Part shown: one piece after another, positions 44,901 through 47,900 of the stretch | How the letters are laid out: each line of letters opens with the position of its first letter | Position numbering within the stretch: position 1 is the stretch's first letter | Made by a program: the position numbers | Assembly (NCBI RefSeq): GCF_965641715.1 | Contig: NZ_OZ282453.1 | Strand: one strand, 5' to 3' | Length of the DNA: 64,000 nucleotides | Origin: Escherichia coli | Lineage (GTDB): Bacteria; Pseudomonadota; Gammaproteobacteria; Enterobacterales; Enterobacteriaceae

Positions 44901-47900
44901 GCAACTTACTGAAGCAAAATATAATCTTGAGCAGACTGTCATTCGCGCACCAAGCAATGGCTACGTCACTCAGGTACTGATCCGCCCAGGCACATACGCA
45001 GCTGCCTTGCCGTTGCGTCCGGTGATGGTTTTCATCCCCGAGCAAAAACGGCAAATTGTCGCCCAATTTCGGCAAAACTCGCTGTTACGTCTGAAACCTG
45101 GTGATGATGCGGAAGTGGTGTTTAACGCGCTACCTGGGCAGGTGTTCCACGGCAAACTGACCAGTATTTTACCTGTCGTGCCAGGCGGTTCTTATCAGGC
45201 GCAGGGGGTATTGCAATCATTAACGGTCGTGCCCGGCACGGACGGTGTGCTGGGAACCATTGAACTGGACCCTAACGATGATATCGATGCCTTACCCGAC
45301 GGCATTTACGCCCAGGTGGCAGTTTACTCCGACCATTTCAGCCATGTTTCGGTGATGCGGAAAGTGCTGCTAAGAATGACCAGCTGGATGCATTATCTTT
45401 ATTTGGATCATTGAGACTTATATCACCTGTGTTTTGCGTGAGCCTGAGCCATACTGATATTTTTCCTCGCACAAAGGACTCGGCATGAAACTCGTCGGTA
45501 GCTACACCAGCCCGTTTGTACGCAAACTTTCTATTCTGTTGTTAGAAAAGGGCATAACTTTCGAATTTATTAATGAACTGCCCTATAACGCGGACAACGG
45601 CGTGGCGCAATTTAACCCGTTAGGAAAAGTGCCGGTGCTGGTGACCGAAGAGGGCGAATGCTGGTTTGATTCGCCGATCATCGCTGAATATATTGAATTA
45701 ATGAATGTCGCTCCGGCGATGTTGCCGCGCGATCCGCTGGAGTCGTTGCGGGTGCGCAAAATTGAGGCACTGGCGGATGGCATTATGGATGCCGGGCTGG
45801 TATCGGTGCGTGAACAGGCGCGTCCAGCGGCGCAGCAGTCTGAAGATGAATTGTTACGCCAGCGGGAGAAAATCAACCGTAGTCTGGATGTGCTGGAAGG
45901 ATATCTGGTCGATGGCACACTTAAAACCGATACGGTCAATCTGGCGACGATCGCCATTGCCTGTGCCGTCGGATATCTCAATTTCCGCCGCGTTGCGCCA
46001 GGCTGGTGTGTCGACCGCCCACACTTAGTCAAACTGGTCGAAAACCTGTTTAGCCGCGAAAGTTTTGCTCGCACCGAACCGCCAAAGGCTTGATGCGCGA
46101 TATGTCCTCCTGACCCATCTCACGTTACAATCCGTGGTTATGTTAAACGCCCTTCTCCGTGTGAGAGGGCCTTGATCAGCCAGGTTTCCTATGACAACCG
46201 AAACGCGTTCCCTCTATAGTCAACTTCCGGCTATTGATCGCTTATTGCGCGATAGCTCCTTCCTTTCTTTGCGTGATACTTATGGTCACACCCGCGTGGT
46301 GGAATTGCTGCGTCAGATGCTTGACGAAGCGCGAGAAGTGATTCGTGACAGCCAGACGCTTCCCACGTGGTGTGAAAACTGGGCGCAAGAAGTCGATGCC
46401 CGGTTGACGAAAGAGGCGCAGAGCGCGCTGCGTCCGGTGATAAACCTGACGGGAACCGTGCTGCATACCAATCTTGGGCGAGCTTTACAGGCGGAAGCTG
46501 CGGTGGAAGCCGTTGCGCAGGCTATGCGTTCGCCAGTGACCCTCGAGTACGATTTGGACGACGCCGGACGCGGACATCGCGATCGGGCGCTGGCGCAGCT
46601 GCTGTGCCGCATTACCGGCGCGGAAGATGCCTGTATCGTTAATAACAATGCGGCGGCGGTGTTATTGATGTTGGCGGCCACTGCCAGCGGGAAAGAGGTG
46701 GTGGTTTCTCGCGGCGAATTGGTGGAGATTGGCGGCGCGTTTCGTATTCCCGATGTTATGCGTCAGGCAGGCTGCACACTATACGAAGTAGGGACCACCA
46801 ACCGCACGCACGCGAATGATTATCGTCAGGCGGTGAATGAAAATACCGCACTGTTGATGAAAGTACATACCAGTAACTACAGCATTCAGGGGTTCACCAA
46901 AGCGATAGACGAAGCTGAACTGGTGGCGCTCGGCAAAGAGCTGGATGTTCCAGTGGTGACTGATTTAGGCAGTGGCTCGCTGGTCGATCTTAGCCAGTAC
47001 GGTTTGCCGAAAGAGCCAATGCCGCAGGAGTTGATTGCGGCGGGCGTCAGTCTGGTGAGCTTCTCCGGCGACAAGTTGTTAGGCGGGCCGCAGGCAGGGA
47101 TTATCGTTGGTAAAAAAGAGATGATCGCCCGCCTGCAAAGCCACCCGCTGAAGCGTGCATTACGCGCGGATAAAATGACCCTCGCGGCGTTGGAAGCCAC
47201 GTTGCGTCTTTATTTACACCCTGAAGCTCTGAGTGAAAAATTACCGACCCTGCGCCTGCTTACCCGCAGCGCAGAGGTCATTCAAATCCAGGCACAACGT
47301 TTACAGGCTCCCCTTGCCGCACATTACGGCGCGGAGTTTGCGGTACAGGTTATGCCATGTCTTTCGCAGATTGGCAGTGGTTCGCTGCCGGTTGATCGCC
47401 TGCCGAGCGCGGCATTAACGTTTACACCCCATGATGGACGCGGTAGCCACCTTGAGTCATTAGCCGCCCGCTGGCGTGAATTGCCAGTGCCGGTGATTGG
47501 TCGTATTTATGACGGACGATTGTGGCTGGATTTACGCTGCCTTGAAGATGAGCAACGGTTTTTGGAGATGTTGTTGAAATGATTATTGCGACTGCCGGAC
47601 ACGTTGACCACGGCAAAACAACCTTATTGCAGGCGATTACTGGCGTAAATGCCGATCGTCTGCCGGAAGAAAAAAAGCGCGGCATGACTATCGATCTCGG
47701 CTATGCCTACTGGCCGCAGCCGGATGGCCGCGTGCCTGGTTTTATCGACGTACCCGGTCATGAAAAGTTTCTTTCCAACATGCTGGCGGGCGTTGGTGGT
47801 ATCGATCACGCGCTGTTGGTGGTGGCGTGCGATGACGGCGTGATGGCACAGACCCGTGAGCATCTGGCGATTTTGCAGCTGACCGGTAACCCGATGCTGA

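Follow-up and report, generated by a model that had tools for sequence, protein, structure and literature searches.

Comparison of the yibH-yibF junction across E. coli and its relatives leads us to conclude, with high confidence, that the 70-bp spacer of this strain preserves the Escherichia yibIH-yibF-selAB junction in its ancestral, uninterrupted form and is the virgin target of a single RhsA insertion in an E. coli lineage. In the mechanism that we propose, an RhsA cassette made up of an Rhs polymorphic toxin, its immunity gene and orphan toxin/immunity modules would have inserted once in an E. coli lineage, exchanging 32 bp for about 8.25 kb. The present strain has nothing inserted there, so that the end of yibH leads through a short spacer and a conserved block with its ribosome-binding site directly into yibF. 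An empty RhsA site is in itself real, common, already described and ordinary. Whether RhsA is present at yibF/yibH has been on record since about 1990. It was mapped across strains in 2009.

The window, by which we mean the whole 64,000-nucleotide stretch of E. coli DNA that was analysed (contig NZ_OZ282453.1), carries the mtlA-yibIH-yibF-selAB region of E. coli, and since mtlA lies on the minus strand it reads in the orientation opposite to the K-12 map (Table 1). The names yibH and yibF for the two genes that bracket the site are those given in the RefSeq annotation of near-identical E. coli genomes. A sequence-only reading of the window had placed the end of yibH at 45414 and the start of yibF at 45485 with some 70 bp between them, and this proved correct to the base, the spacer measuring exactly 70 bp between two genes on the same strand. 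According to the ORF table yibH is intact (378 aa, with its stop codon at 45412-45414), and by tblastn its product matches K-12 YibH over residues 1-378 at an identity that rounds to 100%. Neither the ORF table nor the alignment to K-12 revealed an Rhs core, a YD-repeat ORF, yibA or yibG between yibH and yibF of the window, and these two genes likewise do not enclose a large GC-rich Rhs core ORF (of some 1,200 aa or above) that ends in a variable C-terminal tip and is followed by an immunity ORF; the sole ORF of the window longer than 700 aa encodes a YadA-like trimeric autotransporter (32469-37358).

Table 1. Features at and around the yibH-yibF junction of the window.
Feature	Position	Strand	Evidence
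mtlA (mannitol PTS IICBA), context gene	41463..43376	-	NCBIfam NF011663, full length, 1324 bits
yibI (DUF3302 protein)	43913..44275	+	Pfam PF11742, 2.7e-41; named yibI in near-identical genomes
yibH (HlyD-family periplasmic adaptor)	44278..45414	+	ORF table; NCBIfam adaptor families; tblastn
yibH-yibF spacer, unoccupied RhsA site	45415..45484	.	Sequence; contiguous match in 1,522-1,523 of 5,426 complete E. coli genomes
32 bp missing from K-12, ACTTATATCACCTGTGTTTTGCGTGAGCCTGA	45416..45447	.	Local alignments to both K-12 junctions
yibF-proximal block	45448..45484	+	Invariant columns of the spacer alignment; 100% identical in K-12
yibF (glutathione S-transferase homologue)	45485..46093	+	NCBIfam equivalog NF007682, 7e-123, residues 1-202 of 202
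selA and selB, downstream context genes	46191..49423	+	TIGR00474, 5.7e-190; TIGR00475, 1.1e-276

The corresponding interval of K-12 is of a very different size. In MG1655 (locus L001) 8,286 bp separate the end of yibH (17115) from the start of yibF (25402), an interval filled by RhsA (1,377 aa), yibA, two fragments of the RHS core, yibG and an Imm57 gene with a frameshift. The statement in the sequence-only reading that the RhsA element and yib genes occupy this part of the K-12 map was therefore right, and K-12, when checked for the same 70-bp junction, has the 8,286 bp instead. Local alignments to both K-12 junctions show that homology with the window runs through 45415, one base beyond the yibH stop, and restarts at 45448; the 32 bp of the window that lie between these breaks (45416-45447) stand against 8,248 bp in K-12 (L001 17117-25364). 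When ACTTATATCACCTGTGTTTTGCGTGAGCCTGA was searched for inside the K-12 island it was absent, and we found only two isolated 10-mers of the target, near the right end of the island. The RhsA element of K-12, rhsA-yibA-yibJ-yibG, is a cassette of Rhs polymorphic toxin and immunity genes that occupies exactly the chromosomal position of the window spacer in about 69% of E. coli genomes, whereas the window has none of its Rhs core, YD-repeat ORF, yibA and yibG. According to Feulner et al. 1990 (J Bacteriol 172:446), rhsA of K-12 reportedly measures 8,249 bp, and an Rhs0 strain reportedly has an unrelated 32-bp sequence in its place. Our junction shares the locus and anatomy of that Rhs0 allele, and in a comparison of lengths the sizes found here (8,248 bp versus 32 bp) agree with those reported to within one base.

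Which of the two states came first is decided by outgroup comparison. One genome per GTDB species was scanned with YibF, yielding 55 loci, and the gene order at each locus was read by tblastn with MtlA, YibI, YibH, YibF and SelA of the window. The order mtlA-yibI-yibH-yibF-selA with the same 70-bp spacer was found in E. whittamii, in Escherichia sp. E1V33 and at loci L004 and L005, the latter two from GTDB species representatives labelled E. coli, and these four divergent Escherichia lineages share 90.7-93.7% identity with the window across 12-14 kb. Outside of these lineages, spacers of 61-92 bp separate yibH and yibF at nine loci from Citrobacter, Kluyvera, Lelliottia, Huaxiibacter, Pluralibacter and unclassified Enterobacteriaceae, the spacer of C. 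koseri measures 174 bp, and many other genera are without yibIH and have mtlA adjoining yibF. In the spacer alignment all four of the other Escherichia lineages have kept, apart from a few substitutions, the 32 bp missing from K-12, which are recognisable in Citrobacter amalonaticus as well, and the window spacer aligns colinearly with those of the outgroups and includes no foreign bases. Moreover, the G-rich sequence with which the islands at this site begin, GGGGGA[GA]GGGG, is absent from the window spacer. Because the 32 bp are shared with other Escherichia lineages and can still be recognised in C. amalonaticus, the empty yibH-yibF junction is, as judged from these alignments, the ancestral allele and not a loss. 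The description of the locus as an empty Rhs site, given in the sequence-only reading, is therefore supported and can be taken a step further, in that the window is without the element and the site is the ancestral allele, one that was never scarred.

These results agree with, and extend, a previous survey. The yibF/yibH interval is rhs locus 10 of Jackson et al. 2009 (BMC Genomics 10:584, PMC2935791), who recorded its presence or absence across 20 strains and inferred that locus 10 postdates the split from a basal pathogenic group without the expansion of clade I rhs. The flanking genes are the same as ours, and their inference of a later origin is in accord with our outgroup result; to this we add the frequencies in 5,426 genomes, the exact breakpoints, the spacers found in other genera and a further, third kind of occupant.

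The empty junction is contiguous in 1,522-1,523 (28%) of the 5,426 complete E. coli genomes, strain S88 included. K-12-type RhsA junctions were counted in 3,723 of these genomes on the left side and in 3,746 on the right (a share of about 69%), and the third occupant, a fimbrial/SPATE island, was found in 143 (2.6%); about 15 genomes fall outside these three states. Alignment of the junction to K-12 and to other E. coli, which the sequence-only reading had suggested, thus gives breaks at 45415/45448 for the former and an unbroken match in 1,522 of the 5,426 genomes for the latter. The K-12-type junctions are uniform on the left and on the right, which argues for one original insertion whose later spread was both vertical and through homologous recombination. 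What the RhsA-site island contains varies; strain F8111-1SC3, for instance, has truncated rhs fragments only and no full-length core. The two main states do not track relatedness at a fine scale, and related serotypes can differ (the junction is empty in the O145 strain RM9872 and occupied in O157:H7 genomes), and it is for this reason a coarse lineage marker and not a strain marker. Of the proposal that it would make a useful strain marker, the part that stands is that it separates broad groups; a state found in 28% of genomes does not separate strains. Used in this manner the junction offers a clean three-state marker (empty, RhsA, or fimbrial/SPATE island) by PCR or in silico for broad lineages. 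The window itself contains none of the Clermont phylogroup markers.

The same distribution can be read in a second way, which we consider unlikely. Here an RhsA-bearing ancestor would have been re-emptied by homologous recombination with an empty-site donor, through crossovers in yibH and in yibF/selA, and the sequence would be ancestral in type without an unbroken vertical descent. That both alleles are found in close backgrounds is consistent with such an exchange, since the yibH of the occupied F8111-1SC3 is 99.6% identical to that of the window and since RM9872 and the O157:H7 genomes differ in state; however, recombinational spread of the occupied allele explains a mixed distribution equally well, and the complete genomes closest to the window over 20 kb (XJ34, XJ6-3, GDSC2227PM, PapRG-06-5, A30 and O145 strains) are all empty. 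In this ranking XJ34 and XJ6-3 are 99.0% identical to the window, followed by GDSC2227PM, two baboon isolates and the O145 strains. As a separate observation, the yibH of GDSC2227PM (L002 5979-7115), a close relative with an empty junction, has an internal stop and carries a pseudogene annotation, whereas yibH of the window is intact.

Far less probable is that a resident RhsA was deleted in situ, by illegitimate recombination or by recombination between Rhs repeats, and that the 70 bp are the scar of this event. Rhs elements are known substrates of RecA-dependent rearrangement (Jackson et al. 2009, PMC2935791), and degraded Rhs islands such as that of F8111-1SC3 do exist at this site, but a deletion could not have recreated the 32 bp at 45416-45447 that are missing in K-12 yet present in other Escherichia, and the spacer holds no island-derived sequence. 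With no residual island sequence and no ancestral flanking bases lost, a deletion scar is effectively refuted by the outgroup spacer alignment. An assembly artefact, in which the repeated Rhs core was collapsed or dropped from the source assembly, has a negligible chance of being correct and is ruled out by the same alignment, for while multi-copy Rhs cores do break short-read assemblies (an E. albertii contig, for example, ends 838 bp from yibF), a collapse would not give the ancestral 32 bp, and as many as 1,522 complete genomes show this very junction.

The ancestral, uninterrupted junction of the window can next be set beside the occupied sites, where the picture is less simple. The third occupant, about 10.4 kb long in SCU-204 (L003 1635-12063), carries an AraC-type regulator, a chaperone-usher fimbrial operon with genes for a fimbrial subunit, its chaperone and its usher, and a SPATE-like Peptidase_S6 autotransporter of 1,226 aa. 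The RhsA and fimbrial/SPATE islands begin at one and the same base, directly after yibH TGA-G (L001 17117-17128; L003 1636-1646), share an 11-bp G-rich left end of the form given above (GGGGGAGGGGG in K-12 and GGGGGAAGGGG in SCU-204), and then diverge completely. This shared end could be the remnant of one island that was overwritten by the other, or could hint at a site-directed mechanism. On the right, the fimbrial island is flanked by a diverged copy of the window spacer, 79% identical from 45420 on, which puts the entry of this island within about 45416-45419; the entry for the RhsA and fimbrial/SPATE islands together is at about 45415/45416-45419.

The right end of the K-12 island shows a further irregularity. 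Within the 190 bp from the rhsA start codon to the right junction are two exact 10-mers of the target, TTATATCACC, which corresponds to window 45418-45427 in the spacer, and TTTATTTGGA, which corresponds to window 45398-45407 in the last codons of yibH. They lie at L001 25286-25295 and 25311-25320 in an order inverted relative to the window, and first-order Markov shuffles give a P of about 0.0005 for two or more such 10-mers. In our view they look like scrambled relics of the target. As the two 10-mers are not colinear with the target, the account of a simple insertion that replaced 32 unrelated bp is an oversimplification for occupied strains. Two loci outside the main E. coli sample also depart from the K-12 arrangement. 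In the E. albertii type strain (NBRC 107761, L009 89-838), whose contig ends 838 bp upstream of yibF, a 230-aa MOSC/YiiM-like gene abuts yibF upstream in the place of yibH, and the roughly 30 bp ahead of the conserved block resemble the K-12 island right end and not the empty-site spacer. Escherichia sp. MOD1-EC7003 (L008 1-2962) has a K-12-type right junction (93-95% identical) together with a 157-aa lipoprotein-like ORF, and further ORFs that, as read from the translation, look like fragments of an H-repeat/ISAs1-type transposase; it is another variant of the occupied site.

Combined, the shared left end, the 79% flank, the 10-mers and the E. albertii locus suggest that more than one event has hit or overwritten this position, and that occupied alleles are mosaics imported with diverged flanks. 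It is conceivable, though we hold it to be improbable, that 45415-45419 is a multi-occupancy insertion hotspot served by a site-directed mechanism, of insertion or of cassette exchange, that has gone unrecognised, and that the window preserves its virgin target; the same signs could equally be explained by one old insertion that was later overwritten through recombination inside the island. The irregularities of the occupied sites leave our reading of the window unchanged, which is that of a clean target.

On the yibF side of the entry point, the 37 bp at 45448-45484 are kept in every state examined. Within this block GCCATACTGAT is nearly invariant across genera, and is followed by a T-rich stretch and by AAGGA before the ATG. 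The block is probably the core promoter, 5' UTR and ribosome-binding site of yibF, and a promoter role would account for all islands stopping short of it. A consensus promoter scan of 45250-45650 returned no sigma-70-like site in the spacer, and a consensus terminator scan of the same interval returned none after yibH and one weak terminator-like site inside yibF on the minus strand. A scan of the whole window at Rfam gathering thresholds gave no match at the junction, its sole match being a JUMPstart RNA element (RF01707, 55 bits) at 4426-4464, just upstream of an ORF that starts at 4514; by position, this region looks like the LPS core (waa) cluster.

With the site empty, the strain would lack the RhsA toxin and its immunity genes, as well as one of the Rhs core repeats by which K-12 undergoes RecA-dependent rearrangement. 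Absence of the RhsA cassette would matter for competition between strains and for how susceptible this strain is to toxins of the RhsA type.

Several other features of the window are worth recording. A second pair of DUF3302 and HlyD-adaptor genes (53340-54476, yiaW/yiaV in relatives) lies about 8 kb downstream of 44278-45414; its paralogue is the yibI/yibH pair, and yibF-selAB-yiaY-aldB lies enclosed between the two. Between lldP and yibL is a 6.2-kb segment (32403-38629) that is absent in K-12, which has about 10 bp there. This segment encodes the YadA-like protein mentioned above, a trimeric autotransporter adhesin of 1,629 aa on the minus strand (32469-37358), along with a 227-aa ORF (37402-38085) annotated as DUF3251 in relatives, and the repeat region of the adhesin is the part least conserved against XJ34 (95%, with internal repeats). 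Between yiaT and sgbE (56441-60863) lies a three-gene module that we take to be missing from the K-12 map. Its products are a GH127-like glycoside hydrolase, which weakly matches aceric acid hydrolase, a symporter of the GPH family and a regulator of the AraC type. XJ34 has this module and is without the sgb/lyx genes that come next in the window, its homology to the window stopping at 60875.
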